In this document: positions 34,046 through 59,913 of the stretch, piece by piece | How the letters are laid out: each line of letters begins with the position of its first letter | Position numbering within the stretch: position 1 is the stretch's first letter | From: an uncultured Actinomycetota bacterium | GTDB taxonomy: Bacteria > Actinomycetota > Actinomycetes > JAFAQI01 | DNA: 64,000 bases | Assembly: GCA_963770565.1 (NCBI GenBank) | Contig: CAVYQE010000001.1 | Location: forward strand, 288,001-352,000 | Direction: 5' to 3' | The notes under the pieces: model-generated | Databases searched by the model: none | Told to the model about the DNA's origin: nothing | The model's input: the letters and a program-made list of their open reading frames with translations, nothing else | Translations under genes and position numbers: made by a program

Positions 34046-34075
34046 TTGAAATTGTGCCACCTCTTCCGATATAGT
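34046..34075 (+). promoter_or_regulatory. Sigma70-like promoter for the left half of the phage-like cluster
   Basis: TTGAAA (34046-34051), 18-nt spacer, TATAGT (34070-34075). Confidence 0.6.
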
Positions 34076-34089
34076 CGCGTGAGTTGAGC

Positions 34090-34166
34090 GGTATCAGCGG
34101 AGCCTGACAAGAACCAGGTATCTCAAGAGCCCGCCGTCGGACGTTTGTCCGGCGGCGGGCTTTTTT
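34090..34166 (+). promoter_or_regulatory. Leader attenuator: twin GGTATC-N4-GAGCC boxes plus intrinsic terminator (copy 1)
   Basis: Boxes at 34090-34104 and 34117-34131; stem gcccgccgtcggac/gtccggcggcgggc followed by T6; same architecture at 45789-45867. Confidence 0.7.
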
Positions 34167-34211
34167 CGTTGTTCCGCGTCCCCTCGCGTTCTCATTCCCT
34201 CGGAGGTTGCA

Positions 34212-34412
34212 ATGAAATTGTTTCAATGGTTGCTGGCCAACCAAGACGCGTTGTTGGCGATCGTCGCGGAGTTGGAGACGATCTTCGGCGGCTCGTCTCC
34301 TACGCCCGCGCCCCAGACGATCGATCTGAGCGGCATCCAAGCGTTCATCGCCGCGGTGGAAAAGTGGCTCCCCGTGATCGAAGCGATTGTCGCCCAGTTC
34401 GCGGCCAATTGA
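34212..34412 (+). CDS. Small amphipathic hypothetical protein, first gene of the cluster
   Basis: ggagg RBS; 66 aa with two amphipathic helices. Confidence 0.6.
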   Translation: MKLFQWLLANQDALLAIVAELETIFGGSSPTPAPQTIDLSGIQAFIAAVEKWLPVIEAIVAQFAAN

Positions 34413-34419
34413 TTGTTCC

Positions 34420-34501
34420 CGTTGGAGTTCACGCTTTGGCGTGCCGCGGAACGCACGAGTGTGATTTCGAACAAACGCACGCCGAAGCGTGAACTCCAAC
34501 G
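34420..34501. repeat. Palindromic dispersed repeat gttggagttcacgct...agcgtgaactccaac
   Basis: Inverted repeat; related copy at 61557-61609. Confidence 0.7.
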
Positions 34502-34554
34502 GCTGAATTCCAACTTTGTTTCCAATGCGATCTTCAACATGGGACTCTCGAACG

Positions 34555-35322
34555 ATGATTCTTCATGGAAAACTCGGCAAGCTGCCGGCTCGGCATGATG
34601 TGCGCACGCTCCGCTTCGCCCGCTACGACCGCGCCTTGCCCGCGCCGCCGGCCACTTGCGATTATTCGATCAAAGTGCCCTCCTGGCCGATGCTCGGCAA
34701 CGATCGCTATGGCGATTGCACGTTTGCCGGGGCGGCTCATCTCAGTCAATGCTGGGTGGACAACGCCGGCTCGACGCCGGGCGGATTCCTGCCCGACGAT
34801 CGGGCCGTCGTCGCCGAATACCTCGCCTTCACCGGTGGAGAAGACACGGGCTGCGTCGAGTTGGACGTGCTCAAGACTTGGCGGGCCGACGGGATCGTCG
34901 GGCACAAGATCGGCGCCTTTGCCGCGCTGCGGGCGGGCGATCACGACGAGGCGCACGACGCCGTGTTTCTGTTCGGCGGCGCCTATTTGGGAGTCGCCAT
35001 GCCGCTCTCGGCCCAGAAGCAGCAGGTGTGGGACGTGCCGCGGCGCGGGCCGATCGGCCGCGGCTCGCCCGGCTCGTGGGGCGGCCATTGCGTGGTCGTC
35101 GTGGCCTATGACGCGCGGGGGCCGATCGTCGTCACCTGGGGGCAGCTCCAGCCGATGACCTGGGCCTTTTACGACGCCTATGTCAACGAAGCGTATGCGA
35201 TTCTCGCAGCCGACTTTTTCAACGGCGCGAGCGTCGCACCCAACGGCTTCGATCTCGCTGCGCTCACGGCCGATCTGGCGCTGGTCGGCCGAATGGAATC
35301 CCCCTCGCGTGCCACGGTTTGA
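34555..35322 (+). CDS. Papain-like (C1-related) cysteine peptidase of phage type; possible lysin
   Basis: MLGNDRYGDCTFAG (Cys), GGHCVVVVAYD (His), VTWG and YVNEAYAI. Confidence 0.65.
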   Translation: MILHGKLGKLPARHDVRTLRFARYDRALPAPPATCDYSIKVPSWPMLGNDRYGDCTFAGAAHLSQCWVDNAGSTPGGFLPDDRAVVAEYLAFTGGEDTGCVELDVLKTWRADGIVGHKIGAFAALRAGDHDEAHDAVFLFGGAYLGVAMPLSAQKQQVWDVPRRGPIGRGSPGSWGGHCVVVVAYDARGPIVVTWGQLQPMTWAFYDAYVNEAYAILAADFFNGASVAPNGFDLAALTADLALVGRMESPSRATV

Positions 35323-35516
35323 CGATCGCCGCGATCGACTTCGACCTTCGGAACAAACTCGACCGGCGTCCGTCAAGCCGTGCGACCCCGAGAGTTCGCC
35401 GCAGCCCGCACGGCTTGATCGGCGCCGGCAACGATCGTGCTCGACGCGGCGACCTGTTCGGCGTCGATCAAACAGTGGCACGAGCATCCCCCAACAAACA
35501 CACTTTATCTTCCTCC

Positions 35517-36996
35517 ATGCCGCGTCTTGCTCTACTTATCGCCGTCGTCCTGCCGCTGGGCGGTTCGCTTCGTGCGCAGTCGCCCACAAGCGAGTTGCGC
35601 GCCGCGGTGGCCGACATCGAGCGGCTGCCGGCGGAAGTGCGGCCGGGAGTGCGGTATCTATCGCTCTACGCGATTCCGGCCCGGCGCTGCGCGGAGACCG
35701 CGCGCGTCGTGAGCTACACGCTCAATGCCCTGAGCCGAACGCGGACGATCACGCCGCCGACCGCCGTATCGCCGACGCTGCTGCGGTTTTCGATCACCAA
35801 CTACATCGCCGACCGGGCGGAATTCGACGCCTGGGCGGCCGCCTGGGAACAGCTTGTCAAGGCCGATCCCTATTGGCATTTGCAGACGGAGATTCTCGCG
35901 GCGAGCGCCGCGAACCCCGCGTCGAAATCGGCTGCATTACACGCGACGCATCGCGCTCAAACGACCACCGTCACCGTCGATGGCGGCTGGCTCGATCTCG
36001 CCCTCGCCGCCAAGCTGTGCGCCGATTCCGGCAGTGCCGGAGCGCTGTTGCGGGCCGACGACTTCATCGCCCACGCCACGGCCGCGCCGCATTATTACGC
36101 GCTGGCCGGCATTCCGCCGACCGAGGCCGAGTTCGTCAAATCGCTGGGAGTCGATGCGGCGACGATCGAGCGGTTGCGAGCCGACGCCGGGGCGAATCTG
36201 CTGATTTCCGGAGTGACGCAAAAGCCGCGGCGAATCATCTGGTCGCAGGGGCCGCTCGGCGGCGTCTACGAAACGCTCGATGTCAAGCAAGTCGATGCCC
36301 GCCGCGATCCGATTCGCCGGCCGATCTCCGTCGGCAAGGTGAAACTGAAATACGACGCGGGGGAATGGTTTGCCGTCTGCGCCCAACGGTTTGTGGCGCG
36401 TCGCCCTGTACGATGCGGCCGGCAAGTTGCAACAGTCGGTCCCCGACAAAATCGCCAAAGACACCAGCGATCCCCGCGGCGACGGGATCGTCACGCCGCT
36501 GATCTCGTGCATCCGCTGCCACACCGAAAGCGGCTTGCGGCCGTTTCGCGACGATCAATCGCGATTGCTCGCCTCAGGCCGCGTCGATTTCGAAAGCGGC
36601 GATCCGGCGATCGTCCGCCGCGCGGCCGAATTCTATGACGAGCCCCGCTTGCAGCGGCAAATGGAGTTCGATCGCGAAACCTATGCCCAGGCCGTCGCGC
36701 GGGCGGCCGGCATGAAGCCCGAGGAATTGGCGGCCGCGTTGGCCCGCACGGTCCGCGAATTCGCCTATTTGCCTGTCACGCGCGCGCAGGCGGCCCGCGA
36801 ACTCGGCGTGCCGGAAGCGGAATTCGCCGCCGCGCTCCGTTCATCGCACGACCCGATCGTGCTGACGCTCATCGAAGGCCGCCCGGTGCTGCGCGGGCAA
36901 TGGGAGAGCAGCTTCGCCGAAGCGGCGGGGGGAGTCAGGGGTCGGGGGTCGGGGGTCGGGGGTCAGGGGTCGGGGGTCAGGGGTCGCGGGGAGTGA
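35517..36996 (+). CDS. Exported CxxCH (c-type heme motif) protein, one indel
   Basis: Signal peptide MPRLALLIAVVLPL; DAGEW; SCIRCH near 36505. Confidence 0.6.
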
Positions 36997-37099
36997 CGCG
37001 TGGCGCGTGTGGCACTGGCAAGCGCAGTCTGCCAGTGCCGTGTGGGTCGTGACGAGTGGCGAGTGGCGAGTCACAACAAACAACTGACAGAGGTTTTCC

Positions 37100-37674
37100 A
37101 TGAAAGTCGAACGCTTCACAATCTTTGCGCTCATGACGTTTGCCGCACTCTGGATGGTTGCCGGTTTTTGGGCTCCGAATGCGCTATCCGCCGCCTGCCG
37201 CGTGCAGACGGCGGTCGTGGCGGCCAATGTCGTGGCCGTGCCGGTCGCCCTGTCGATCGGAGTGCCGGTGGCCGACGCAGCGCCGTATCGATACAGCTAT
37301 CGAGCCTTCGCACCGCCGCCCCCCGAGCCGATCGGCGAAGCCGAGATCGAAGCGATTGCCGCGCGCGTGGCCGAGAAGCTACGGCCGGCGAACGGGAATT
37401 CATCGGCAAACGCAATTCCCGCTTCGCCACGACCGCCGCCAAGTCGGCCGCCGGCCGCCACGTCGCTCGTCGCGCAAAGTGTGCGCGATGTCACGGCGGA
37501 GCCGCGCCGAGAGCGAATCTCTCGTTCGAAAACCTCAACCGACTCGATTGCCGCACGCGCTTGGCGGCCGTTCGAGCCGTGCTCGACGAGTCGATGCCGA
37601 AAGACGGCCCGAGGCTCACCCCCGAAGAGGCCGGCCAAGTGCTCGAAGAATTGACGGATGAAAGGGGCAAGTGA
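37100..37674 (+). CDS. Exported small cytochrome c-like protein, one indel
   Basis: Signal peptide; KCARCHGG ... MPK distal Met in the downstream frame. Confidence 0.55.
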
Positions 37675-37843
37675 CGAGGGTGTGCCACTGGCAGGCAGTC
37701 TGCCAGTGCCCGTGGCGCGTGACGACTGGCAAGGGTGTGTCACTGGCAAGCACCGCCCAGTGCGGCGTGGTGACGGGCGATGTGTGCTTCCAGGCAGAGC
37801 AAAGAACAAGATTATCGGTTCCCTTTTTCTCGGAGGTGTTGTA

Positions 37844-38197
37844 ATGAAGAAGAGTATGACGAGTCTGTTGGTCGTGACGGTTTCGATCTTCGCGGCCGCC
37901 GTCGGTTCGGCATCGGCTTGCCCGGTGGCGATCGGCCCTGCGGCACCTGTCGCGTTTGCAGTTCAAGCCGTCGCGGCGCCGGTCGTCGTGTCGGCGGCGC
38001 CGATTGTCGTGCCGACCGCGCCGATTGTCGTGCAGTACACTCCGGCCGTCTATCTTACTGCACCAGTGTTGACGGCGCCGGTGTTGGCCGCGCCGACCGT
38101 GTCGCTGTCGGCAGTTCCGCTGGTGATCGAGCACGTGGTGAGGATCAAGTCGCGGCGGGCGTGTCGCACGCCGCTGCGCCGCCGGCTGTTTCGCTAA
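37844..38197 (+). CDS. Ala/Val/Pro-rich exported hypothetical protein
   Basis: ggagg RBS, signal peptide, AP(I/V)VV repeats, basic C-terminus. Confidence 0.55.
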   Translation: MKKSMTSLLVVTVSIFAAAVGSASACPVAIGPAAPVAFAVQAVAAPVVVSAAPIVVPTAPIVVQYTPAVYLTAPVLTAPVLAAPTVSLSAVPLVIEHVVRIKSRRACRTPLRRRLFR

Positions 38198-38295
38198 CGC
38201 AGCGCCCTTGCGATTTGTGGAACGGTCGGCTGATTCCGCTCCGGCGCCGCCTTGGCGTGCGTCCGGAGCTTGTTCCGACAGAGAGGTCACGATCC

Positions 38296-38523
38296 ATGAC
38301 GAATTCGGCTGGAAATCGCGTCAGCCTGACGCCCGGCGATTGGCTCAAGGTGGTGATGTTTCTCGTCGTGCAATCGGCGGCTTTGATCGGGGTCGGCGTC
38401 GATATGCGCGAGCGGCTGGTGATCGTCGAGACCCGGCTCCAGGCGCACGACGACAGCTTCGCCGACCTCCGCGGTGACGTGGCCGAGATGCGCAAGGAAA
38501 TCGCCGAGCTGAGGACGAAATAA
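38296..38523 (+). CDS. Small single-TM coiled-coil protein (holin/spanin-like architecture)
   Basis: gagg RBS; WLKVVMFLVVQSAALIGVGV TM then heptad coil; stop overlaps the next ATG. Confidence 0.5.
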   Translation: MTNSAGNRVSLTPGDWLKVVMFLVVQSAALIGVGVDMRERLVIVETRLQAHDDSFADLRGDVAEMRKEIAELRTK

Positions 38524-39076
38524 TGAACATCCGCGATCGAATCAAGGAATTGCGGCGCGTGAGGGCGGCGAGCTGCGCCCCAATCCGCGCAACTGGCGCA
38601 CGCATTCCGCCGCCCAGCGCGACGCTCTGCAAGGCATCCTGGCCGAGGTCGGCTACGCCGGCGCGCTCTTGGCCCGCGAGTTGCCCGACGGCTCGCTCGA
38701 ATTGATCGACGGCCATTTGCGGGCCGAGACGACCCCCGAGATGTCTGTGCCCGTGCTGGTGCTCGACGTGAACGAAGCGGAGGCGAACAAAATTCTCGCC
38801 ACGCATGATCCGCTCGGCAATCTGGCGGGCTGCGACGCCGCGGCGCTCGAATCGCTCGTAGCCGACGTGCAGACCGACAACGCCGCGCTGCAAAAGCTAT
38901 TGGACGACATGCTGCAAACGCCGGCAGGTTCCGAGCCGGATGAATTCCCGCGGTCCGAAACGAGCATCCCGCATTTGTTCCAAATCGTCGTCGAATGCCG
39001 CGACGAGGCCGAGCAGCAGTCGGTGTACGAGCGGCTGATCGAAGACGGATTGAAATGCCGGTTGATGATGTTGTGA
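38523..39076 (+). CDS. ParB-like N-terminal domain protein (phage type), one indel
   Basis: PNPRNWRTH, ELIDGHLRAE, VPVLVLDVNEAEA..LAT.DPL and IVVECRDEAEQ. Confidence 0.8.
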
Positions 39077-39215
39077 GCCTCGTTCCCAGGCTCTGCCTGG
39101 GAACGCCCTGCACTTGAGGCTCCGCCTCAACGTCAGCAGCGGATCGAGCCGACTTCGCCGACAAACGACGAGGCAGAGCCTCGCAGGCAGTGCGTTCCCA
39201 GGCTCTGCCTGGCAG

Positions 39216-39620
39216 CGCAGTTTGTGAGATGGAATCGTATCGACGTTTATGCTGTTTTTGTTCGGGGCTTTGGAAAGGACGGCAGGAGATCAAGGAACCC
39301 GGTAGGGTTCCCAGACATGAGCCGGTGGTTGACGCCGTCAGGCCGATACCACCGGTCGTGAAATCGAACAATCCCTTTTGCACCCCGATAGGGGTGCCAG
39401 CGCTCTGCGACCCCTACCGGGGTCGAAGAAAAGTTTTCGCGTTCCGATGCCGGCGGTGTCGGCCTGCGGCCTCAACCGCCGGCTAATGTCTGCCATCCCT
39501 ATCGGGATGAATTTCATGCCACCTCGGAGTCGGGAATTGTGCGAGTACGTGGGCGGAACAAAAACCGACCAAAACACGAACTCGAATTCCACTTCGAAAC
39601 TCCACAGATTGCACAGCCCA
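39216..39620. mobile_element. ~0.4-kb MITE-like element (copy 2), nested in a cgttcccaggctctgcctgggaacg repeat (39080-39725)
   Basis: High similarity to 4642-5047; flanked by two halves of another palindromic repeat. Confidence 0.7.
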
Positions 39621-39769
39621 GGCTCCGCCTCGTCATCACGACCCGCCACCAATCGCCACGCAACGAGCCGTGCCGCGCGGCAGAGCCGTGCCCGCAGTGC
39701 GTTCCCAGGCAGAGCCTGGGAACGAGATGCGAACAGCCGACAACCGACAACCGACCAAGGACCAATCCG

Positions 39770-40905
39770 ATGCTCGAAATCATCAACTCCTGTCCGCTGC
39801 ACGATTCGTTTCGCGTCCAACAGGTCGCCGGGATGTTCGATGTGCCGCTGGCCGAGAAGCTCAGCGAGCGTTTTACGGTCGAGATGCCGGCGCTCGACGG
39901 TGATTGGCGGATCGGGCTGATCGTCGGCCCGTCGGGCAGCGGCAAAACGACGCTCGCCCGGCGGCTCTTCGGCGATGCGCTGGTCGAGCGGACCGAGTGG
40001 CCGGCGAATCGGGCCGTCGTCGATTGTTTCGGCGACCTGCCGATCGGAGAAATCGTCGGGTTGCTCATCGCTGTCGGATTCAGCTCGCCCCCGTCGTGGA
40101 TCAAGCCCTACGCCGTGCTCAGCGGCGGCGAACGCTTCCGCTGCGATCTGGCGCGGGCGTTGAGCGGAGGGCAGAGAGCAAAGAGCGGAGCGCCGGACAC
40201 TTCTCCGCTCTCTGCTCCCTGCTCTTCGCTCGCACCGCTTGTGGCCTTCGACGAATTCACCAGCGTCGTCGATCGCACCGTGGCGAAGTTCGGCTCGGCG
40301 GCGGTGGCGAAGGGAATTCGCAACGGGCGAATCGACTGTCGATTCGTCGCGATGACTTGTCATTACGACGTGATCGAGTGGCTCGCGCCCGATTGGGTGC
40401 TCGATATGGCCAGCCGCGAATTCCAATGGAGGTCGCTTCGGCGACCGCCAATCGAGCTGGACATCTTTCGTTGCCGGAGTCGTGCATGGGCCTTGTTTGC
40501 GAAGCATCACTATTTGAACGGCCGCTTGAACCGCTCGGCCCGCTGCTTTATGGCATTGTGGGACGGGCGCCGGCGGCGTTTTGCGCGACGTTGCCGGTCA
40601 TCGGCCGCGCGCGGCGATGGCGGATCACGCGGCTGGTGACGCTCCCGGATTTTCAGGGCATCGGCATCGGCTTGCGCCTGGCGGAGGCGGTCGGCGATCG
40701 GCATCGTGCCCAGGGAGAACGCTATAGCATCACCGCCAGCCATCCGGCCGTGATCGGCCATTGCCGAAATTCGCCGCGCTGGCGGGCGACGCAAGTGATG
40801 AAGACCGGCTCGCGGCCTACTCTCGGGATTCCGAGCTATCGCGGCTCGTGCGGTCGCGCCGTCGTGTCGTTCGAATACGTTTCAGCTTCGGAACCTCGAC
40901 CGTGA
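39770..40905 (+). CDS. ABC-type ATPase fused to GNAT acetyltransferase (phage DNA-modification type), one indel
   Basis: [34 protein letters not shown] and [14 protein letters not shown]. Confidence 0.82.
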
Positions 40906-41209
40906 ACAAACCCATATTGCCCGTGACGGGAAACGGCTCGATCGCCTGGGCGTCGGCCAGCTCCCACGCATATTTATCGGCAGAACCCTCGAAGCCAGCC
41001 CCCGCGGCATCGCTCGGCAGAAAACGGCGAACATCAATGAGATTCACCACGCCGACGGCCACGCCGACCGGATCATCGCCGTGCGGCCGTTTGGTGGCGC
41101 AAATCAACAACGGCCCGCGATGCGACGTGGCCCACGAGCGGACCTCGATGGTCTTCTTCCCCGCGGCAATCAGCGAGGCCCAAGGTTGATGGACGGAGAG
41201 CGCTTTCAT
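40817..41209 (-). CDS. ASCH domain protein
   Basis: MKALSVHQPWASLIAAGKKTIEVRSW..RGPLLICA and YAWEL..P.PV.G.MGLF. Confidence 0.85.
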   Translation of the reverse strand: MKALSVHQPWASLIAAGKKTIEVRSWATSHRGPLLICATKRPHGDDPVGVAVGVVNLIDVRRFLPSDAAGAGFEGSADKYAWELADAQAIEPFPVTGNMGLFTVEVPKLKRIRTTRRRDRTSRDSSESRE

Positions 41210-41354
41210 GGAGATGAAGATAGCGGCTGGCTTGCGAGAATCAAGGCGACGATGCACGTAGGACGGCTCTCCCGAGCCGTCGTACCAGACGGCTCGGGAG
41301 AGCCGTCCTACGGGATCCGCCACCCGTCAACCCGAGGCCATTCGAATCGCACCC

Positions 41355-41819
41355 GTGAAATCCAGCCGCTATAAACTCGACGAAACCAAGCAGCGCGAGA
41401 TCTGCGCGATTCTCGCCGTCGGCGGCACTCGGCTGATGGCCGCCGCGTATGTCGGCTGCTGTGTGGCGACGATCCGCCGCGCGGCGCTGCGCGAAGCGGC
41501 GTTCGCCGCGCAGCTTCGCAAAGCGGAGAGCAGCGCCGAGATCACGTTCCTCAAGAGCATCCACGCCGCCGCGAGCGACGTCAAGCAGTGGCGGGCCGCG
41601 GCCTGGGCCCTCGAGCGGCTGTTCCCCGAGCGCTACGCCCGCCGCCTGCCCGACTCGATCACCGTCGAGCAAATGACCGAAATCATCAAGGCCCTGGGAG
41701 CGATCATCGTCGGCGAAGTGCCGGTCAAGCGATATCGCCAGCGCGTGCTGGCTCGCTTGGCGGACTTGCTGGCGGAGCAGCCGCCGAACAAGAAGGTAAA
41801 GGCATCCCGTGGAAAGTAA
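41355..41819 (+). CDS. Terminase small subunit-like HTH protein
   Basis: AAAYVGCCVATI HTH and WRAAAWALERLFPERY; overlaps the terminase large subunit start. Confidence 0.65.
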   Translation: MKSSRYKLDETKQREICAILAVGGTRLMAAAYVGCCVATIRRAALREAAFAAQLRKAESSAEITFLKSIHAAASDVKQWRAAAWALERLFPERYARRLPDSITVEQMTEIIKALGAIIVGEVPVKRYRQRVLARLADLLAEQPPNKKVKASRGK

Positions 41820-43426
41820 TCTGATCTTCGGCTGGCGCGGGCTCGACGCGGCGAACCGTTCGCTCCGCATCCTGCACGAGTCGATCGAGAATGAGGGGAA
41901 CGTCGATCGCCGCCCGGCCGCAATCGCCCGGCAATGGAGCTTGCTCGATTGGGGCCGCGCTTATTTGCCCGATCATTTCCGCGTCGCCCCGTCGCGGATG
42001 CACGTCTGGCTGGCCGAACAGTTCGACGAAATGAAAAACCATCGCGGCCGAAAGCTCAATGTGCTCGGCCCGCGCGGCGGGGCAAAGTCGACGATCGCTA
42101 CGCTGGCGTTCGTGCTCCGCTCGGCCCTCGAAGGCCGCGAGCCGTATATCTGGATCATCTCCGACACCAAGCATCAGGCCATCGCGCATCTGGAAAACGT
42201 CAAGGCCGAGTTGCGCGACAATCCGCTGATCGCCGCCGATTATCCCGAGGCGGCCGCGGCGGGGCGACGCTGGCGCGAGAATCTCATCGGGCTGGCGAAT
42301 GGCGTCACGATCGAAGCCTTCGGCACGGGGCAGCGGATCCGCGGCCGCCGCAGCCGCGAGCATCGGCCGACGCTCATCGTGTGCGACGATTTGCAGGACG
42401 ATCGGCATATCGAATCGCGCCTGGCCGCGCGAACATTCGGCCCGTTGGTTTCACGGAAAGTTGCTGAAGGCGGGAACGAAGCGAACGAACGTGGTGAATC
42501 TGGCCACCGCCCTGCATCGCGAGGCGCTGGCCCTGGTTCTCGACGAGACGCCCGGCTGGATTTCGCGGCGGTTCGCGGCCATCGAGCGCTGGCCCGACAA
42601 TATGCCGCTGTGGGCCGAGTGGGAGCAGATCTATGCCGACGTTGAACGACCGGATAGCCGCGAAGCCGCGCGGGCGTTCTTCGAAGCGCATCGCGCGGCG
42701 ATGGAGGCCGGCGCCGAGTTGCTCTGGCCCGAGGAAGAGGACTTGTACACGCTGATGGCGATGCGCGTCGAGGAGGGGCGGACGGCGTTCGAGCGCGAGA
42801 AGCAGAATGTGCCGATCAATCCGGAAGCGTGCGAATGGCCCGAGGAGTATTTCGGCGATGGGCTGTGGTTCGACGATTGGCCGGCCGACGTGCAGGTGAA
42901 AACGCTGGCCCTCGATCCGAGCAAGGGGCACGACGCCGGCCGCGGCGACTATTCGGCCTTCGTCATGCTGGCCGTGGATCGCCGCGGGCTGCTCTATCTC
43001 GAAGCCGATCTGGCCCGACGGCCGACGCCGCAGATCGTCAGCGACGGGGTGGAACTCTGCCGGCGATTCAAGCCCGACGTGTTCGGAATCGAGGCGAATC
43101 AGTTCCAGGAATTGCTCGCCGGCGAGTTTGCCGCGGAACTCGCGCGGCAGCGCGTCTACAACGTCGCCCCGTGGGGAATCGAAAACCGGATGAATAAGCA
43201 GACGCGAATCCGCCGCCTCGGGCCGTTCTTGTCGTGCAAGCGGTTGAAGTTCAAGTCCCACTCGCCCGCCACGCGATTATTAGTGGAGCAGTTGAAAGAA
43301 TTCCCCGTCGCCGATCACGACGATGGCCCGGACGCCGCGGAGATGGCGATTCGCCTGGCGGCCGAATGGCTGGAAGGCCGGAAACCCTCGGATGGCTTGG
43401 GAGATCGATTTCGCTTGAGCGTCTAA
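41809..43426 (+). CDS. Phage terminase large subunit, one indel
   Basis: GPRGGAKST, GQRIRGRR..RPTLIVCDD, FEREKQN.P, ALDPS..GDYSA, GIEANQFQ and HDDGPDA. Confidence 0.92.
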
Positions 43427-43467
43427 TGTCGCCTTTCGCTCCGCGAAAGAGCGTTTTCCCGCCGAGT

Positions 43468-45867: not shown

Positions 45868-45895
45868 GTTGCGCCAAACAATGGAGAAAATCAGC

Positions 45896-47953: not shown

Positions 47954-47967
47954 AATGGCAGTTGTCC

Positions 47968-48315: not shown

Positions 48316-48401
48316 CACCGGCGGACAAAGCACAACGGACAACGGACAACGGACAACTCTCGATTTCCAATCACTCTCAACCTATTCGGAGACGCTTGAT
48401 T

Positions 48402-49925: not shown

Positions 49926-49978
49926 GCTTACCGCTGCCCTCACAAATCTCCCGGAAAACCCAGAAACGCGGCTCAGCC

Positions 49979-51414: not shown

Positions 51415-51923
51415 CCACGCTTGCCAGTGAAATCCGCGTTTCGATGCAGTGGCTATTCCAGGAGCCGCTGGCCTTGACCACGGTCGGCGACGCTTCGCAA
51501 CTCGCTTACGACGAAACGCTCGCCAGCGGCACAGCGGCCGACCAGGCCGACCGCATCTGGTCGGACCAACGCACGCTGGCGGCCGGGGCGGATGACGACC
51601 TCGATCTGACGGCGCTTACGCAATCGCTGTTCGGCTCGACGGTGACGATCGACTTCGCCCGCGTGAAGGCGATCTTGATCGTTCACACCTCGACCACGGC
51701 CGGGGAAAAGCTGTCGCTCGACTCCTCGGTGACCAACGGTTTCACCGGCCCGTTCGCCGGCTCCGCCACGAGCAAGCTGGAGATCGGCGCCGATAGCGCC
51801 GCCCTGTTGGCCAGCAAGAAAGACGGCTGGGCCACGGCCTCGGGCAATAAAGTGCTGCGAATCCACAACGGCGGCTCGGCCACGGCGATTTACAACGTCG
51901 TCGTGCTCGGGACGAGCGCGTGA
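51411..51923 (+). CDS. Hypothetical virion protein
   Basis: ATGA overlap; DDLDLTAL..FG..IDFARVKAILI. Confidence 0.55.
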   Translation: MTTLASEIRVSMQWLFQEPLALTTVGDASQLAYDETLASGTAADQADRIWSDQRTLAAGADDDLDLTALTQSLFGSTVTIDFARVKAILIVHTSTTAGEKLSLDSSVTNGFTGPFAGSATSKLEIGADSAALLASKKDGWATASGNKVLRIHNGGSATAIYNVVVLGTSA

Positions 51924-52076
51924 AGCTGAAGGATGAAGGCTGAAGGCTGAAGGATGAAGGATGAACGCGGCGGTCCAATGCAATCGCGATGATTGCACTG
52001 CGCTGCACGGGCAACTGACGACTGACAACTGACAACTGACAACCGGCAACCGGCAACTGACAACCAACCGCCAATC

Positions 52077-52460
52077 ATGTCCCAACCTATCTCCGGCAAA
52101 AGTGGCTTCGTCAAGATCGGCGACGATGCGGTCGCCGAAGTGACGCGCTGGTCGTTCGCCAAACAGGCCCACTCGAGCCGGTATGCTTCGAGCAGTACGG
52201 GCGGATTTACGCGGAGCATTCCGGGAGTGAAATCGGGCAGCGGCGAAATCGAATTCGCGTTCGACATCGCCGCCGCCGGCCCGCTGGTCGAAGGCGCCGC
52301 CGTGACGCTCCAGCTCTACCTCGACGCGACCCACTTTTACTCCGTTCCCGCGATCGTCACCGGATTGGAAGTCGAAGTCGATATCGACAGCGGCGCGGTG
52401 ATCGCGGGCACAGCCCGCTTCGACACCGACGGCGCCTGGACGGAGCCGGACTTGGGATAG
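52077..52460 (+). CDS. Tail tube protein (short siphophage/GTA type)
   Basis: ISGKSG.VKI..AEVTRWSF, GGFTRSIPGVKSGSG and AIVT..VEVD; 127 aa. Confidence 0.7.
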   Translation: MSQPISGKSGFVKIGDDAVAEVTRWSFAKQAHSSRYASSSTGGFTRSIPGVKSGSGEIEFAFDIAAAGPLVEGAAVTLQLYLDATHFYSVPAIVTGLEVEVDIDSGAVIAGTARFDTDGAWTEPDLG

Positions 52461-52555
52461 GAGCAGGGAGCGGGTAGCAGGGAGTAGGGAGTAGGGGGGG
52501 AGCAGGGAGCGGGGAGCGAAGGGTCGGGAGCAACTTTTTCCGCAAGGCGATTTTC

Positions 52556-53269
52556 ATGGATAAGCATCATGCCATGGCCGGCGTCGGGGGGACGATCCGC
52601 ATCGGCGCGATCGACTTTCGCCTCCGGCCGCTGACGCTCGGTGATCTGGCCGAACTCAAGGCCCACGTCGTCGCCCGGCGCGAGCCCGCTCGAAACGCTC
52701 GCCCGCGATCTCGAGCGCATCGATCCGCGGCAACATGCCGAGCGGATTCGCGATGCTTGGGCGCTGCGCGGATCGGGCGCGGCGCGACGGCCGAAGAAAT
52801 CGACGATTATCTGCAATCGTTTCGCGGCACGGCGCATTTGTTCTGGCTCATGGCCCGCGAGGATTGCCCCGCGCTCGATTCGTTGGCGGCGGCCCGCTCG
52901 TGCCTGGCGGAATATGCCGAGGGCCGGCTGCTGGAACTTCACGGCCGTCTCGATCAAGCGACCGGTTTTCTTTCGGACACGGCCAATTTGGCCAACGCGC
53001 CGAGCGCCGGGACCGCCGGTTTTCATTGGGCGCGGCTCTATCGTCATTTGAGCCTGACCTATGGTTGGACCCCGGCCGAGATCAACCGCCTGACTCCGTT
53101 TCAAGCGACGATGTACGCGAATCCGCAACTCTCGGAAAACGGCACGATCCGCATGAAACTCAGCGATGCAGTCGGGGCCGGAGCGCGCCGTGCGCCGCGG
53201 CGGCCACGCGGCGAACCTTCCGACGCCGGCAATATCGGCCGCGGCAGCACCGGTGCGCGATTCAGATAG
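52556..53269 (+). CDS. Tail assembly chaperone-like protein
   Basis: FRLRPLTLGDL N-terminus and YGWTPAEINRLT C-terminus; follows the tube gene. Confidence 0.55.
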   Translation: MDKHHAMAGVGGTIRIGAIDFRLRPLTLGDLAELKAHVVARREPARNARPRSRAHRSAATCRADSRCLGAARIGRGATAEEIDDYLQSFRGTAHLFWLMAREDCPALDSLAAARSCLAEYAEGRLLELHGRLDQATGFLSDTANLANAPSAGTAGFHWARLYRHLSLTYGWTPAEINRLTPFQATMYANPQLSENGTIRMKLSDAVGAGARRAPRRPRGEPSDAGNIGRGSTGARFR

Positions 53270-53564: not shown

Positions 53565-54431
53565 ATGTCCATCGCCTTTCAAGAACTCGCCGGCTCGCCG
53601 CGATTGCGGATTCTCGAATCGGGGCTGATCGTCGGCGAGCGCGATTTTCAAGTCGCCTGGGACGATTGGGTTCCGCTCGTCAACGCGCTGCGAGGGCTTT
53701 ATTTCTCGGCCGGCTCGCAGGGGGCGGCGCTGATCAGCCCCGCTTATTTTCCCGGCAATCCGGCGCTGCGCGTCGTCGCGATCGCGATGACGCCATTCGA
53801 CGAGCAATCGCCCGACGGCGACGCGGCGCTGGCCGATCTCTCGACGGGGCTGAACAGCTATGCAGGGGGCGCGCGGCTGCATGTGGAATATGGCCTGGTC
53901 GAGGCGGCGGCCGACAAGCGCAAGCCGCCGCATCCGGCCGGCACGTTTCTGCGTTGGGAGCGCGACGTGGGGGTCGATATGCTCTCGATCCCCGCCCGCT
54001 ATTGGAAATGGTCCGGCGGCCCGAACACGATTCTCGAAGACGACTTGCCGATCGGAGTTCGGGTGCCGACGGCGACGCACACGCTCATTTGGAGCAACGT
54101 CGCCCGGCCCCCTTACGACACGATCCAAGCCACGCGCGGCACGGTCAATTCCTCTGCGATTCTCGGCGCGCCTGCCGGCTGCCTGCTGTTCGTCGGGGCG
54201 AAGATCACCGAGATCTATCAGCTCGACGGCACGCTTCGTTATACCTTGCGGTACATTTTCGCCGAGAAGACCGTCCCCTTGATCGCGGATCCCGACACCG
54301 TGGTCGGCCACAACTACTTTTATTACGGCCCCGGCTCGAGCGGCGAGAATTGGTTCGAGGTCGTCTCGGTCGCCGGCGGGCACGCGGTCTACCCGGCGAC
54401 CGAGTTCGGGCCGTTGTTTCAATACGAGTAA
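53565..54431 (+). CDS. Hypothetical tail-region protein
   Basis: Intact 288-aa ORF with host-like codon usage; GTVNS..GAPAGCLLFVGA. Confidence 0.6.
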   Translation: MSIAFQELAGSPRLRILESGLIVGERDFQVAWDDWVPLVNALRGLYFSAGSQGAALISPAYFPGNPALRVVAIAMTPFDEQSPDGDAALADLSTGLNSYAGGARLHVEYGLVEAAADKRKPPHPAGTFLRWERDVGVDMLSIPARYWKWSGGPNTILEDDLPIGVRVPTATHTLIWSNVARPPYDTIQATRGTVNSSAILGAPAGCLLFVGAKITEIYQLDGTLRYTLRYIFAEKTVPLIADPDTVVGHNYFYYGPGSSGENWFEVVSVAGGHAVYPATEFGPLFQYE

Positions 54432-54453
54432 GCCAGAGGCTCACCGGATGTCG

Positions 54454-57395
54454 AACCGCCAAGGACGCCAAGGACGCCAAGAAGCTATTCGATAATCTCA
54501 TTTCAAGTCTTGGCGTCCTTGGCGTCTTGGCGGTTCAATGCGACAATCCGCATGACACAGACGCAGAAACGTGTTTTTCGACAACTCCTTCGGACCTCAG
54601 GGAATGGAGTCGACTGAAATCGACCAAAGCTGGTTTTAGGAACACTAATCGGCGCTAATTAGCGCTAATCAGCGATGATTAGTTTTCCCAATCTGTCATG
54701 CCGCCGTTCTTTCTCGCTCTCGGTTTTTCCGTGACCTCGTGTAAAAACTTGGTTGCGGCGTGACGCCCGCGCTATGCAATCTGTGGATAAAAATATCTCT
54801 GATTTCTTGGCGTCCTTGGCGTCTTGGCGGTTCAATGCGACAATCCGCATGACACAGACGCAGAAACGTGTTTTTCGACAACTCCTTCGGACCTCAGGGA
54901 ATGGAGTCGACTGAAATCGACCAAAGCTGGTTTTAGGAACACTAATCGGCGCTAATCAGCGCTAATCAGCGATGATTAGTTTTCCCAATCTGTCATGCCG
55001 CCGTTCTTTCTCGCTCTCGGTTTTTCCGTGACCTCGTGTAAAAACTTGGTTGCGGCGTGACGCCCGCGCTATGCAATCTGTGGATAAAAATATCTCTGAT
55101 TTCTTGGCGTCCTTGGCGTCTTGGCGGTTCAATGCGACAATCCGCATGACACAGACGCAGAAACGTGTTTTTCGACAACTCCTTCGGACCTCAGGGAATG
55201 GAGTCAACTGAAATCGACCAAAGCTGGTTTTAGGAACACTAATCGGCGCTAATCCGCGCTAATCAGCGATGATTAGTTTTCCCGATCTGTCATGCCGCCG
55301 TTCTTTCTCGCTCTCGGTTTTTCCGTGACCTCGTGTAAAAACTTGGTAGCGGCGTGACGGCCGCGCTATGCAATCCGTGGATAAAAATATCTCTGATTTC
55401 TTGGCGTCCTTGGCGTCTTGGCGGTTCAATGCGACAATCCGCATGACACAGACGCAGAAACGTGTGTCTCGACAACTCCTTCGGACCTCAGGGACTGGAG
55501 TCGACTGAAATCGACCAAAGCTGGTTTTAGGAACACTAATCGGCGCTAATCAGCGCTAATCAGCGAAGATTAGTGTTCCCGATCTGTCATGCCGCCGTGC
55601 TTTCTCGCTCTCGGTGTTTCCCTGACTCGTGTAAAAACTTGGTAGCGGCGTGACGGCCGCGCTATGCAATCCGTGGATAAAAAGATCTCTGATTTCTTGG
55701 CGTCCTTGGCGTCTTGGCGGTTCAATGCGACAGTCTGCATGACACAGACGCAGAAACGTGTTTTTCGACAACTCCTTCGAATCTCAGAGAAATGGAGTCG
55801 ACCGAAATCGACCAAAGCTGGTTTTAGGAACACTAATCGGCGCGTAATCAGCGCTAATCAGCGATGATTAGTGTTCCTGATCTGTCATGCCACCGTGCTT
55901 TTTCGCTCTCGGTTGTTCCGTGACCTCGTGTAAACACTTGGTTGCGGCGTGACGGCCGCGTTATGCAATCTGTGGATGAAAACATTTCTGCCCTCTCGGC
56001 GTCCTTGGCGTCTTGGCGGTTCAATGCAGGGCGATTGCATCATGTTGCATACGATGTGGAAGTTTGCGGTATCGCCGACACGGCCCAGTTCATCTTGACG
56101 TAACCGACCAATTATGCCGCGGAGGCTGAAGCTGCTGCTCGCATACTCGATCTCGCCATTTCGAATCAATACCGAATGTTGGTTGCCCAATCCCCGCCAT
56201 CATTGCCAGTGTGGTGCAATCGCCCTGCGGTTCAATGCGACAGTCTGCATGACAAAGACGCAGAAACGTGATTTTCGACAACTCCTTCGGACCTCAGGGA
56301 ATGGAGTTAACTGAAATCGACCAAAGCTGGTTTTAGGAACACTAATCGGCGCTAATTAGCGCTAATCAGCGATGATTAGTTTTCCCAATCTGTCATGCCG
56401 CCGTTCTTTCTCGCTCTCGGTTTTTCCGTGACCTCGTGTAAAAACTTGGTTGCGGCGTGACGCCCGCGCTATGCAATCTGTGGATAAAAATATCTCTGAT
56501 TTCTTGGCGTCCTTGGCGTCTTGGCGGTTCAATGCGACAATCCGCATGACACAGACGCAGAAACGTGTTTTTCGACAACTCCTTCGGACCTCAGGGAATG
56601 GAGTCAACTGAAATCGACCAAAGCTGGTTTTAGGAACACTAATCGGCGCTAATTCGCGCTAATCAGCGATGATTAGTTTTCCCAATCTGTCATGCCGCCG
56701 TTCTTTCTCGCTCTCGGTTTTTCCGTGACCTCGTGTAAAAACTTGGTTGCGGCGTGACGCCCGCGCTATGCAATCTGTGGATAAAAATATCTCTGATTTC
56801 TTGGCGTCCTTGGCGTCTTGGCGGTTCAATGCGACAATCCGCATGACACAGACGCAGAAACGTGTGTCTCGACAACTCCTTCGGACCTCAGGGACTGGAG
56901 TCAACTGAAATCGACCAAAGCTGGTTTTAGGAACACTAATCGGCGCTAATCAGCGCTAATCAGCGAAGATTAGTGTTCCCGATCTGTCATGCCGCCGTGC
57001 TTTCTCGCTCTCGGTGTTTCCCTGACTCGTGTAAAAACGTGGTAGCGGCGTGACGGCCGCGCTATGCAATCCGTGGATAAAAAGATCTCTGATTTCTTGG
57101 CGTCCTTGGCGTCTTGGCGGTTCAATGCGACAATCCGCATGACACAGATGCAGAAACGTGATTTTCGACAACTCCTTCGAACCTCAGAGAAATGGAGTCG
57201 ACTGAAATCGACCAGAGCTGGTTTTAGGAACACTAATCGGCGCTAATCAGCGCTAATCAGCGATGATTAGTGTTCCCGATCTGTCATGCCGCCGTGCTTT
57301 TTCGCTCTCGATTGTTCCGTGACTCGTGTAAACACTTGGTTGCGGCCTGACGGCTTTCTGCTTTCTTGGCGTCCTTGGCGCCTTGGCGGTTCAAT
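54454..57395. repeat. Tandem array of about nine 297-bp units plus a terminal partial unit
   Basis: Unit starts (tcttggcgtccttggcgtcttggcggttcaatg) at about 54508, 54805, 55102, 55399, 55695, 55994, 56502, 56799, 57095 and 57364. Confidence 0.95.
56027..56227. mobile_element. 201-bp MITE with ISAs1-like ends
   Basis: 13-bp perfect TIR cagggcgattgca/tgcaatcgccctg; 10-bp direct repeat cggttcaatg at 56017-56026 and 56228-56237. Confidence 0.85.
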
Positions 57396-57408
57396 CGGAG
57401 ACTGACCG

Positions 57409-58218
57409 ATGAGCAATCTTGGAAAGGTCGCCCCCGGCGAGCCGATCACGGCCGAGTGGGCCAATGCGCTGGTCGAGGCCGTGGTCTCGCTGGGGCGGAT
57501 CGTCGGCGTCGCGCCGGTGCTAGTCCAATATAGCGACGTCGGAATTCAGATCAGCCTGCCCACGCTGCCGCGGTTCGATCTCGTCGAACTCAAAGACACG
57601 ATCGAGGCCCGCGACACCGACAAGCAAGCCGCGCGATTCTCCTTCGATCCCGCCGCCACCGACAAATGGATCGACGCCGCTCAAACGCTCGACCACACGG
57701 CCGACGCCCAGCAGGGACTCGCTCTCGCCGGCGAACGGCATCTGACGTTCTTTCATCCGGCGGCCGGCCAACGGATTCCGTTGCCGGGCGTGCAATACCA
57801 TTTCGGCAAGTTGAGCGCGGCGCTCGCGGCCGGCGGCTCGGCGGCCTGCGCGGTTTGGAAAGTCGCCGGCGGCAGCCCGGCCGATTCGACCTATAGTGTG
57901 ACCGTCTACGACTGGCTCTTGCCGCCCGGCGGGCAACTCGCGTCCGGAACGCCCGTCATGCTGCTCTTTCACTTGCAGTCGAAACGATTCTATGTCGCCG
58001 CTTCGAATTCCATCGGCCTGGTGATCGGAAAATCGTCCGGCCCGATCGACAAAGGGGCCAGCGGCACGGTCGCTGTTTATAACGGCGCGGCCGGCAGCGA
58101 AACGGACTCGGGAAGCACGATCGCAGCCTACAACCCCTTCGCCGACGTGGCCGACGGCAAGTGGGTCGCGGCCGGAGAGATCAACGGGCAATGGTATCTG
58201 CTGGCCGCAGAGTGTTAA
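57409..58218 (+). CDS. Hypothetical tail/fibre-like protein
   Basis: KVAPGEPITAEWANAL N-terminus; internally repeated beta modules; ends WYLLAAEC. Confidence 0.55.
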   Translation: MSNLGKVAPGEPITAEWANALVEAVVSLGRIVGVAPVLVQYSDVGIQISLPTLPRFDLVELKDTIEARDTDKQAARFSFDPAATDKWIDAAQTLDHTADAQQGLALAGERHLTFFHPAAGQRIPLPGVQYHFGKLSAALAAGGSAACAVWKVAGGSPADSTYSVTVYDWLLPPGGQLASGTPVMLLFHLQSKRFYVAASNSIGLVIGKSSGPIDKGASGTVAVYNGAAGSETDSGSTIAAYNPFADVADGKWVAAGEINGQWYLLAAEC

Positions 58219-58369
58219 GCGGCGGGAAGAAGAAAACGCGACAGAGTATGAGGATGACGATCTCGCGATCCTAATCCTTCTCGTACTCCTGCTCGCAGTC
58301 CAATTCCCAATCTTAATCCTTATCCTACTCCTGCTCCGCTCCCCGTTCACCCTTCAGCCTTTCCCAACC

Positions 58370-59007
58370 ATGGGCTTTAAACTCTTCGGCTGCGGATGCT
58401 GCGGCGGCCGGGATTGCTCCCCCTGTTGCTCGGCGAGCCCGGCGACGGCGACGATCGATTGGCCCGGCGGTTTGACCGCCTTGGCCGATTGCGACGGCTG
58501 CGACAAGATTCCCGTCGGCGATTATGTCGTCGCGGCCGAGACCGATTACGCGCCGTTCGGCGAAGCCTGTTATTGGATCATCGAGCTGGGCGCGGCGACG
58601 TTTATCCCGATTGCGACGCGGGGTTGATCTTCGGGACCGATCCCGCCGCGCCGGGCCCGGAGGCGACCTTTCTGGCCGCTCTGGTGTACGATCTCGTCAG
58701 CGGCCAGTGCTATCTGGCCGTGACCGTGTCGGTCGCGATCACGAGCGCCGCGAGTGGAGGCGGAAACACGGTCAACTTCCTGGCCGGAGCGCTGTATGTG
58801 AGCGAGCCATCCGACGAGGCCGATCGTTTTTGCAGCGGTACGTTCACATTGAACCTCGTCTCAGCCGATCCGGGCTACCACGATGCGGCGGGCAATTTGC
58901 TCTGGACCGAGCCGAATTTCGGCGACCCATTCACGACGACCGATTTCACGCCGTACAGCGGCGGCTGCGCCGGCTCGCTGCCGAGTTCGTTGACCGTGAC
59001 ATTTTGA
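58370..59007 (+). CDS. Cys-rich N-terminal hypothetical protein, one indel
   Basis: GCGCCGG..C..CC start; continues in the next frame to SLPSSLTVTF. Confidence 0.45.
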
Positions 59008-59080
59008 GGTTTAAGGCCGCGGACCGCGCGGATTGAAGAAGAGAATCCACGAGAATCCGCGAATATCCGCGGCAAAAACA

Positions 59081-59498
59081 ATGCCCGAATGCGTTTTCGA
59101 ATTGATCGGCGAGCAAGGCGCGGCGTTCCTGCATCGCTGCCGCCATTGCGGCCGGCCACACACGTCGCGGCGTCGCCGATCCGAGCGCGATCCATCGCGC
59201 GTGCCGCGTCTCTTCGCCCTCCGCTCTTCGCTCTTTGCTCCTCCCTTCGCTTGCCCGCCGCGCCCTGAATTTCGCCCGCAGCTTGCCGCCGCATCTCTTG
59301 GCCGGGGCGCCGCTGGCAACTCAAGAGCAAATCGACGCTCGGCTGGCGATCTGTCGAAGCTGCCCGCACTTCACCGGCACGCGTTGCGGGCACTGCGGCT
59401 GCCAATGCCACGGCCGCCGCGTGTTTCTCAATGCCCTGGCCTGGGCCGACAAGGCTTGCCCGATCGGACGCTGGGGGCGGCTCGATCGGCCCGGTTGA
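59081..59498 (+). CDS. Small Cys-rich (zinc-binding) protein, fragmented
   Basis: RLAICRSCPHF...CGHCGC...ACPIGRW. Confidence 0.55.
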
Positions 59499-59522
59499 CA
59501 AGGACATAAACGTATGTATACT
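59495..59522 (+). promoter_or_regulatory. Sigma70-like promoter
   Basis: TTGACA (59495-59500), 16 nt, TATACT (59517-59522). Confidence 0.65.
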
Positions 59523-59580
59523 ATTCGGCGGCAGGAAAAACTGTCGAATTCGCGAATTGGCCGAATCGGGAGCGACCACC

Positions 59581-59913
59581 ATGACAACCGCGCGGGCGAA
59601 GACCTGGCCTCTGTTTCGCGTTTGGATCACGCGGTTCGAGCGTTGGCAGCCGCGGGCGTGGGACGAACTCCCGCCGCGGGCGACCGCCGTCGAGCCGGCG
59701 GAGCCGATGGCCCTGTCGGCCCGCGAGGCGATCCGCTTTCTCGAAGGCTTCAACCGCACGATGCTCGCCCGGCTGCTGCCGATCTGGGCCGTGGCCGTGC
59801 CCGTGACGATTCATTATGAAGGCGATTTGCGGGAGGGCGCGATCATCACGCGGCGGGTGAAATTGCTCGATTGCCGGCGGCCGGTGGCCGAGGAGCCGGC
59901 GGCGGTCGGTTAG
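59581..59913 (+). CDS. Hypothetical protein
   Basis: ggag RBS; FLEGFNRTML..WAVAVPVTIHYEGD. Confidence 0.55.
   Translation: MTTARAKTWPLFRVWITRFERWQPRAWDELPPRATAVEPAEPMALSAREAIRFLEGFNRTMLARLLPIWAVAVPVTIHYEGDLREGAIITRRVKLLDCRRPVAEEPAAVG

Follow-up and report, generated by a model that had tools for sequence, protein, structure and literature searches.

The DNA analysed in this study, referred to as the window, is a stretch of 64,000 nt (positions 288,001-352,000 of contig CAVYQE010000001.1, termed C1, in assembly GCA_963770565.1) that carries a cluster of phage-type packaging, head and tail genes, most of them on the plus strand, between positions 32313 and 59913. Our results strongly argue that this cluster belongs to a vertically inherited and host-maintained set of phage-derived genes in the bacterial order Pirellulales. 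Moreover, they suggest that the set probably encodes a particle system resembling a gene transfer agent (GTA), that is, a candidate GTA or viriform, which was anciently acquired by the Pirellulales and has an independent origin. Actual gene transfer by the element, a prediction from its sequence, is possible but somewhat doubtful, and we tentatively propose that it represents a further independently evolved, order-wide GTA with a lambda-like head and packaging apparatus, tolerance to division over two or three loci and accessory genes of its own.

The original prediction had described a co-directional phage gene cluster in a planctomycete at positions 34046-59913. Searches with Pfam and PHROGs verified genes for TerS, TerL, portal, capsid, connectors and tail-like proteins on the plus strand. 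For comparison we used c49, a 38,420-bp contig of the related genome G440 (G000 denotes the assembly of the window, and other G and L numbers denote comparison genomes and loci, respectively). Collinearity with c49 sustained the proposed right end but moved the left end to approximately 32313. Within the proposed interval, positions 34046-41355 contain accessory genes rather than TerS and TerL. Contig c49 is collinear with window positions 32964-59874, with protein identities of 40-82%. There, the element begins with a gene of the endonuclease/exonuclease/phosphatase (EEP) family and ends with a small gene at 25394-25726; its neighbors are an S41 peptidase gene at one end and leuA, hemD-hemE and glycosyltransferase genes at the other.

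The window belongs to a Pirellulales segment of about 395 kb that is joined to, or binned with, a higher-GC organism, and its true host is a relative of G440. This assignment is based on a step in GC content, on repeats private to the segment, on second copies of housekeeping genes and on the similarity of Mfd. The first four 100-kb bins of C1 have a GC content of 0.624-0.635 and the other 46 bins of the 4.43-Mb assembly one of 0.671-0.704, with the step on C1 near 394-396 kb. Thus, the host-like composition that had been claimed for the cluster (GC 0.62-0.66) is confirmed against the surrounding 395 kb (0.624-0.635) but not against the remaining assembly (0.67-0.70). For the window's Mfd, DnaK and HisF, other contigs carry a second copy with 50-57% identity, and the window Mfd is 83% identical to that of G440, a metagenome-assembled genome (MAG) of the Pirellulales, and 66-75% identical to those of 27 other portal carriers. 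In addition, the planctomycete-typical families PSCyt2, PSD1 and DUF1501 are encoded in the window. Region C1:1-~395000 is therefore probably a chimeric join or a binning error. As the bulk of the assembly represents a different organism, its own relatives (portal in 0/40) and its phylum (Mfd at most 54% identical in 400 genomes) were discarded as comparison sets, and their blanks are irrelevant to the element. At the DNA level, synteny with four genomes of the same genus was limited to 66-68% matches in conserved genes. Several host genes of the segment change frame, with DnaK broken into three pieces and each of Mfd, HisF, DUF1501 and ATP-sulfurylase into two, which suggests indel errors of a long-read assembly. 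The overlapping frames lie at 3209-4409 (DUF1501), 7533-8535 (hisF), 19312-20862 (dnaK), 20869-21962 (ATP-sulfurylase) and 28147-30395 (mfd).

Scanning a collection with one genome per species for the portal protein yielded 228 relatives confirmed by tblastn. The best 80 of these 228 are 58-77% identical, and 79/80 derive from Planctomycetota lineages, mostly Pirellulales. In an even sample of 151 genomes of the order of G440, for which a completeness of at least 90% was requested, the portal was matched at E<=1e-20 in 109 genomes. Seven of these matches are only 31-37% identical and represent another portal type, leaving about 102 carriers at 47-88%, and only two genomes of the 151 contain two high-identity copies. 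No further copy of any element gene was detected in the rest of the 400-kb segment. A search at the protein level returned 2255 clusters at E<=1e-30 among 8000 scored. Those with a name are annotated as 'phage portal protein' of Pirellulales, Planctomycetia or Planctomycetota MAGs, and the top 120 are all MAG or metagenome proteins. For both portal and capsid, tblastn gave no match at E<=1e-5 in 50,697 GenBank phage records. A patchy distribution and closest homologues in free phages, both named beforehand as observations that would speak against a GTA-like element, were thus not encountered.

To compare the descent of the element with that of its hosts, we determined p-distances and quick-search maximum-likelihood trees of Mfd and portal from 25 carrier genomes and the window. 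Portal and Mfd distances are strongly correlated (Mantel r 0.87, n=26). Moreover, the two trees have 14/23 splits in common, among them a seven-genome clade and the pair formed by the window and G440, whereas label shuffling (2000 rounds) left 0.28 common splits on average and never more than 3. In the comparison with host descent that had been proposed as a check, the portal tree thus follows that of the host Mfd.

The ratios of nonsynonymous to synonymous substitutions (dN/dS) were estimated by the Nei-Gojobori method for four pairs of related loci; those of the more distant pairs, in which dS exceeds 1, are rough. Over the structural genes, they range from 0.05 to 0.36, with values of 0.11-0.19 for the portal, 0.09-0.21 for TerL, 0.17-0.18 for TerS, 0.22 for the protease, 0.14 for the decoration protein and 0.055 for the capsid (pair L080/L083). 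The upstream subtilase (0.07) and the P-loop/GNAT gene (0.15-0.18) are similarly constrained. Flanking host genes at the same loci gave 0.02-0.25, and the values for portal, TerL, capsid, protease and P-loop/GNAT fall within that range. Open reading frames (ORFs) with dN/dS above 1 are probable artefacts of wrong-strand gene calls. Relaxed selection, likewise named in advance as contrary evidence, was not found.

In order to define the architecture of the locus, ORF families were clustered over 147 sources (145 loci, the window and c49). The recurrent order comprises the EEP gene, an accessory set, a ParB-like gene, a P-loop/GNAT gene, TerS, TerL, portal, the small gene F7, protease, decoration protein, capsid and a variable end. 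The accessory set consists either of an HD-domain protein, F12, a trypsin-like peptidase (F11) and F15, or of a subtilase, F16 and a cytochrome-c-like protein. At L028, L042, L045, L067, L084, L109 and others, a protein with an HD_4 domain, the domain of RelA/SpoT-type hydrolases, adjoins the EEP gene and the trypsin-like peptidase. On the downstream side, other lineages have a Phage_tube_2 module or a host GH2 hydrolase gene directly after the head genes. At L080, L083, L091 and L077, GH2 is followed by the same reverse-strand gene, the chromosomal context being kept across several species.

The window cluster is contiguous, unlike the split copies in several other genomes. In many genomes the gene series ends after the portal. 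All five genomes examined that lack a capsid gene at the portal locus (5/5) contain one capsid homologue elsewhere at 59-64% identity, which is open in four of them and consists of two adjacent pieces in G447. The displaced regions hold F7, protease, decoration and capsid genes and, in G445 and G461, also connectors and window-type tail genes. In G447, a distance of 39 kb separates the two parts, which lie on opposite strands of the same contig. Similarly, in 4/4 genomes with an isolated portal gene TerL is encoded elsewhere without internal stops, as one continuous match in three and as two pieces in G448. Its distance from the portal is approximately 385 kb on the same contig in G455, more than 400 kb in G444 and about 41 kb in G448, in which the capsid is found on yet another contig. 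The split genomes are spread over several clades in the Mfd tree, so that splitting probably occurred independently. Dispersal of this kind would be incompatible with an excising prophage, which could not package itself either, and dispersed genes that are kept open and under selection must work for the cell. Taken together, distribution, trees, selection and dispersal support the earlier notion of a GTA-like, long-resident element rather than a recent prophage.

The gene content of the cluster was determined by Pfam searches with the 114 ORFs of at least 100 aa that overlap positions 32000-62000 and by PHROGs searches with 50 of them; in all, 224 window ORFs were scanned. Frame plots of third-position GC content (GC3) were too noisy for gene calling; two ORF-scoring schemes were used, and some wrong-strand calls persist. 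Genes described below lie on the plus strand unless stated otherwise. TerS, the small terminase subunit (41355-41816), matches positions 13-128 of the 166 of phrog_4102 at 6.9e-13 and is 61% identical to its c49 homologue. TerL, the large subunit (41809-43423), contains a Terminase_6C domain and is distributed over two overlapping frames that both match phrog_38 (41809-42642, 2.6e-28; 42299-43423, 2.8e-37), with a frame change near 42426; in c49 it is one ORF of 543 aa. The portal gene (43773-45146) encodes a protein of the lambda family (PF05136, 4.2e-17) and is single copy in the assembly. The major capsid gene (48267-49577; PF25209, 5.6e-14) is 82% identical to that of c49. Both the portal and the capsid ORF are intact, as had been stated originally. 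At L026, L030, L031, L039 and L100, all in long-read MAGs, the portal gene precedes one to four partial copies of itself, between which leucine-rich-repeat genes are interspersed, and some of these loci have no other element genes nearby.

Between portal and capsid lie three further genes. F7 (45596-45775), a small conserved ORF of about 60-98 aa, is present in 50 loci, has a dN/dS of 0.09 and is 73% identical to c49 15788-15967. The adjacent gene F3 (45824-47156; 82% identical to c49, frame change in the linker) had been described as a protease gene and encodes the prohead protease. An AlphaFold (AF2) model of its c49 homologue (pLDDT 76) confirms this assignment at the level of the predicted fold, as it matches T4 gp21 (5jbl; probability 1.00, E 1e-3) as well as the herpes assemblins; after the protease domain, the same model shows a long helical, scaffold-like C-terminal part. 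The third gene, F57 (47263-47951), occupies the position of the head-decoration gene, in which Phage_cement_2 is found in relatives; it is 63-68% identical to c49 17294-17983 and changes frame near 47675.

Downstream of the capsid gene, F10 (49882-50835) corresponds to head-tail attachment and head completion proteins; its match to Phage_HCP is below the Pfam cut-off in the window (2.1e-4), but the relative L117 yields Phage_HCP at 1.3e-12 together with Phage_attach. Likewise, F20 (50983-51411; phrog_347), a tail completion or tail terminator protein, matches PF11367 below the cut-off here (6.9e-4) and at 1.1e-10 in a relative. F18 (51417-51920; phrog_22694, 2.8e-27; 67% identical to c49) is a probable tail tube-region protein, and F29 (52041-52457; phrog_1407, 4.1e-4; 71% identical) resembles a major tail protein. 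By its position, F43 (52478-53266) is tail-assembly-chaperone-like; it is read in one frame here and in two different frames in c49 (22123-22584 and 22581-22817), resembling chaperones with programmed frameshifts. F17 (53565-54428; 73% identical to c49; AF2 pLDDT 75.7) probably represents a distal-tail or tail-tip protein. Its residues 1-115 weakly match the tail-tip proteins of Mu, lambda (gpM), 80alpha and T5 (Dit) with Z scores of 6-7, which lie within the range that the tool gives for unmatched models, and Foldseek returned nothing at E<=1e-3. F33 (57409-58215; 67% identical to c49 24281-24868), a tail-end protein, had no PDB or family match and only weak leads in the Atlas. Profile searches of PDB sequences with F17, F3 and F33 gave nothing useful. 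The window-type tail thus consists of the tail completion protein, two small tube-region proteins, the chaperone-like gene, F17, F33 and one or two small genes. At the position of a tape-measure gene, nothing is conserved between the window and c49. The ORF at 58396-59004 has neither a family match nor a homologue in c49, and the last gene in common with this closest relative (59431-59913; 60% identical to c49 25322-25690, which is followed by the host leuA) marks the right end.

The genes 5' of TerS show that the cluster is not strictly structural-only. The leftmost gene common to relatives, F19 (32313-33959), encodes the EEP-family protein; it is 56% identical to c49 2731-3678 and present in 15 loci, and PF03372 was detected at 2.4e-11 in the relative L071. 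It is followed by a gene for a phrog_19005 protein (34516-35319; 4.8e-27) that is absent from c49 and whose family occurs in only two loci. The conserved gene F16 (35490-36960) is split into two frames, 60% and 75% identical to c49 5885-7345, where it encodes 527 aa; it is found in 17 loci, with a dN/dS of 0.09 (pair L071/L063). F25 (37088-37659), homologous to c49 8262-8813, has a weak cytochrome-c-like domain (PF13442, 9.7e-5, below the cut-off). The ParB-like nuclease-domain protein (38513-39073) matches phrog_620 and phrog_723, more strongly in c49, and has homologues in 48-53 of 80 genome loci. A P-loop NTPase with a GNAT domain (39539-40902; phrog_11143) changes frame near 40540-40560, its two ORFs matching profile positions 9-242 and 238-352; c49 has a single ORF of 478 aa. 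Finally, a gene for an ASCH-domain protein on the minus strand (40820-41323; PF04266, 1.7e-10; phrog_3193, 1.8e-33) is an insertion specific to the window, its family being found in one locus.

The absence of an integrase, repressor, replication genes, tRNA and attachment (att) sites had been noted previously and was corroborated here. Within the reach of Pfam and PHROGs, none of the 224 window ORFs belongs to an integrase, recombinase, repressor or replication family, and no mobility gene was found among the 36 ORFs of the 38-kb contig of the closest relative. The 64 kb contain no tRNA or tmRNA gene, and positions 30000-64000 no Rfam family at the gathering score. Moreover, in 5/5 genomes no tyrosine or serine recombinase family is encoded within 30 kb of the element, the nearest lying 36 kb from the portal in G441. 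A hairpin repeat with 18-base arms (34419-34502, second copy at 61555-61611; four arm matches in the window versus 0 expected) is the only flanking direct repeat of at least 14 bases. It was rejected as an att site, since a third, partial copy is located 250 kb away, the repeat is absent from c49 and the other loci, and its left copy is located within the conserved element, downstream of its first gene. In their placement the hairpins are terminator-like, one following a small ORF and the other the stop codon of a gene for a MacB-type transporter.

In agreement with the original description, host repeat families occupy gaps of the cluster and occur outside it. Matches to DNA elsewhere were obtained for 18 intervals within or adjoining the cluster, and 654/663 BLAST high-scoring segment pairs, self-hits included, fall into C1:0-400 kb. 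A dispersed repeat of 423 bp (39207-39629), of which at least 26 copies with 92-95% identity exist outside the window, separates the ParB-like gene from the P-loop/GNAT gene; the corresponding gap in c49 measures only 174 bp. A repeat of about 420 bp of this dispersed kind is also found at window positions 4642-5059, and by size and copy number it resembles a miniature inverted-repeat transposable element. Furthermore, a tandem array of a 297-bp unit (54508-57352; 5.1 and 3.8 copies, GC 0.53-0.55) occupies 2.8 kb between F17 and F33, which are approximately 150 bp apart in c49. This unit has more than 100 BLAST hits outside the window across the 400-kb segment, and neither a long plus-strand ORF nor an Rfam match was found in it. 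A 164-bp repeat pair before the capsid gene and 24/84-bp repeats in the disordered linker of F3 (46397-46782) have likewise been gained relative to c49. Except for those in the F3 linker, all repeat insertions lie between genes. As host repeats fill gaps that are short in c49, they argue for a long residence in the lineage.

Based on these data, we infer how the system might work. Under host control, a fraction of the cells would express the packaging module, comprising the ParB-like nuclease, the P-loop/GNAT protein, TerS, TerL and portal, and would co-express the head-tail module, with the prohead protease/scaffold, the decoration protein, the lambda-type capsid, the connectors and a short non-contractile tail. 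The terminase would package DNA into the small heads, and the element itself need not be part of this DNA, since in several genomes its genes are separated by 39 to about 400 kb or reside on other contigs. Release of the particles would follow, and they may deliver their DNA to related cells. One may speculate that the serine peptidases and the EEP protein serve release or entry.

Several observations weigh against a host-maintained, GTA-like particle system. The portal is not matched in 42/151 genomes of the order, and 7 more have only the more distant match. The trees make use of a single host marker and of 26 genomes picked as portal carriers, and the correlation with Mfd distances is weaker for the C-terminal half of TerL (Mantel r 0.65, n=20) and for the capsid (0.50, n=13) than for the portal. 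The blank among GenBank phages is weak evidence, as few planctomycete phages have been isolated. The tandem partial portal copies look like decay, and the c49 homologue of F17 (L169:3268-4131, a short-read assembly) contains one in-frame stop. Foremost, the variable tail side is the main phage-like, non-fixed feature: at least three arrangements alternate downstream of the capsid, F17 is present in only 16/147 sources, many of whose loci are incomplete, and no tape-measure, lysis or regulator genes were recognised by Pfam and PHROGs in the window and in c49. Mosaic tail modules are typical of phages, and the variation may stem from an exchange of modules with phages or from tail loci located separately. 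Together with the GH2 gene directly after the head genes in some lineages, it also suits a domesticated element that is kept by the host for purposes other than transfer, be it a PBSX-like killer whose particles take up DNA but do not deliver it, a device for DNA release or storage, or capsids that need the tails or help of others, and the comparative evidence for host maintenance fits this explanation equally. We nevertheless consider it rather unlikely, because purifying selection acts on TerS, TerL and portal, for which a device for killing alone would have no obvious use, and because genes for tail completion and for tail-tip-like proteins exist in the window type. Less probable still is a source in ordinary temperate phages with strict host specificity that co-diverged with the Pirellulales, the window copy being a prophage and perhaps a defective one. 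Their genes would have to be maintained as single copies in about 100 genomes, with a recombinase nearby in 0/5, host genes abutting the c49 element and genes split over distant loci, yet open, in 9/9 genomes tested. In favor of such phages, 65 IMG/VR contigs carry the portal, several element families match PHROGs, the tail modules are mosaic, and more distant contigs (39-45% portal identity) harbor further phage genes, Mu F among them. Against them, the IMG/VR contigs that are long enough show the genomic gene order, 0/47 contigs available in full have terminal repeats, although all of these are fragments of at most 16.7 kb, and GenBank provided no phage match.

The sequence quality of the window copy is poor, and at least five of its genes change frame (TerL, P-loop/GNAT, F16, the protease-scaffold gene and F57), which likewise weighs against a GTA-like system. 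In conjunction with the inserted repeats, including the 2.8-kb array, and the in-frame stop in the c49 F17 gene, this could point to a functionless prophage remnant in neutral decay in this genome. We regard such a fate as very improbable: DnaK, Mfd and HisF of the window are frame-shifted as often, and the frame changes of the cluster are hence most simply explained as assembly errors; the repeats are intergenic save for the one in a disordered linker, and the family-wide dN/dS is well below 1. As host and phage genes alike change frame, intactness is not to be judged from this assembly. An intact temperate prophage was rejected, given that no integrase, att sites, tRNA, repressor or replication genes were found. 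The same applies to a capsid-forming phage-inducible chromosomal island (cf-PICI). Such islands combine an integrase, a replication module and capsid genes without tail genes and have a patchy, mobile distribution, whereas the Pirellulales element has no integrase, possesses tail completion and tail-tip-like genes and shows an order-wide, vertical distribution. A GTA-like particle system thus remains the reading that we favor.

Measured against the features by which GTAs are recognised, the element provides phage-like head, packaging and tail genes on a cellular chromosome, and Pfam and PHROGs detected no module for integration, replication or lysogeny. It descends vertically together with its hosts, as judged by the one marker Mfd, its structural genes are under purifying selection in four genome pairs, and its genes occupy several loci in the 5/5 and 4/4 genomes tested. 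GTA particles are further characterised by a content of random host DNA that is too short to encode the particle. Like the GTA of Rhodobacter capsulatus (RcGTA), it is a compact head-tail cluster of approximately 16-23 kb without integration and replication genes, is vertically inherited at the level of an order, is under purifying selection, is spread over more than one locus in some genomes, and has a short tail module in which small proteins follow the chaperone. In contrast to RcGTA, whose proteins belong to HK97-type families, it has a lambda-family portal (PF05136), a PF25209 capsid and a gpD-like decoration protein, which are not homologous to their counterparts at the family level. It further differs in its upstream accessory module (EEP, serine peptidases or F16, ParB-like, P-loop/GNAT), occurs in another phylum and is a GTA candidate. 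Membership in the RcGTA family, whose members share portal, capsid and tail genes homologous to RcGTA g3, g5 and g12-g15, was rejected, as the Pfam scans returned the lambda-type portal and the PF25209 capsid but no GTA-specific family. Compared with lambda-like siphophages, the element contains portal, cement protein, capsid, head-tail attachment, head completion and tail completion genes in the usual order, but has no integrase, repressor, replication, lysis or tape-measure gene, and its protease joins a fold of the T4 gp21/assemblin type to a helical tail.

In its architecture, FpGTA of Faecalibacterium prausnitzii (excerpts of PMC12946183) is the closest published counterpart. Like the Pirellulales element, it is found outside the Alphaproteobacteria, is near-ubiquitous in its clade, is split into two operons about 125 kb apart and has a packaging-plus-head core. 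FpGTA is, however, of the podovirus type and was validated through purified particles, their proteomics and the sequencing of the DNA inside them (same excerpts), whereas the Pirellulales element is a candidate. PBSX of Bacillus subtilis is likewise chromosomally fixed and phage-like and packages DNA without self-propagation, as stated in these parts of PMC12946183; it differs from the element as a killer particle with a contractile tail, no sheath gene having been found in the latter. Excerpts of the 2024 review PMC11841831 list GTA lineages of the Rhodobacter type and of Bartonella, Brachyspira, Desulfovibrio and Methanococcus and give a small terminase without DNA-binding domain as a criterion. 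Few lineages are known and most are alphaproteobacterial (excerpts of PMC11841831 and PMC12946183), and neither text mentions planctomycetes. Searches of the full-text literature yielded no description of a planctomycete GTA, although supplementary tables of surveys may list other phyla. One paper that combines 'GTA-like' and 'Planctomycetota' was dismissed, as it concerns alphaproteobacterial islands.

If the proposed reading is correct, a phage of a different type has been independently domesticated in the Planctomycetota. It would provide a natural route of DNA exchange and make gene flow testable in a phylum with an unusual cell biology and few genetic tools, and some carriers appear to have closed genomes, which renders the prediction accessible at the bench. 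More than 200 species would then form a natural series that shows the tamed virus as one contiguous set, in two parts or in three, and that permits asking how regulation rather than linkage holds such systems together. In this regard, a link of the variant with the HD_4 protein to alarmone signalling would be of interest.

Repeats with a shared motif of about 20 bases, possible regulatory sites of the element, occur at window positions 43466-43607, 46397-46782 and 47966-48317 and at C1:217103-217851, 71 kb upstream of the window. In addition, a GH2 gene is located 17 kb upstream of the cluster, at about 15600-17500.

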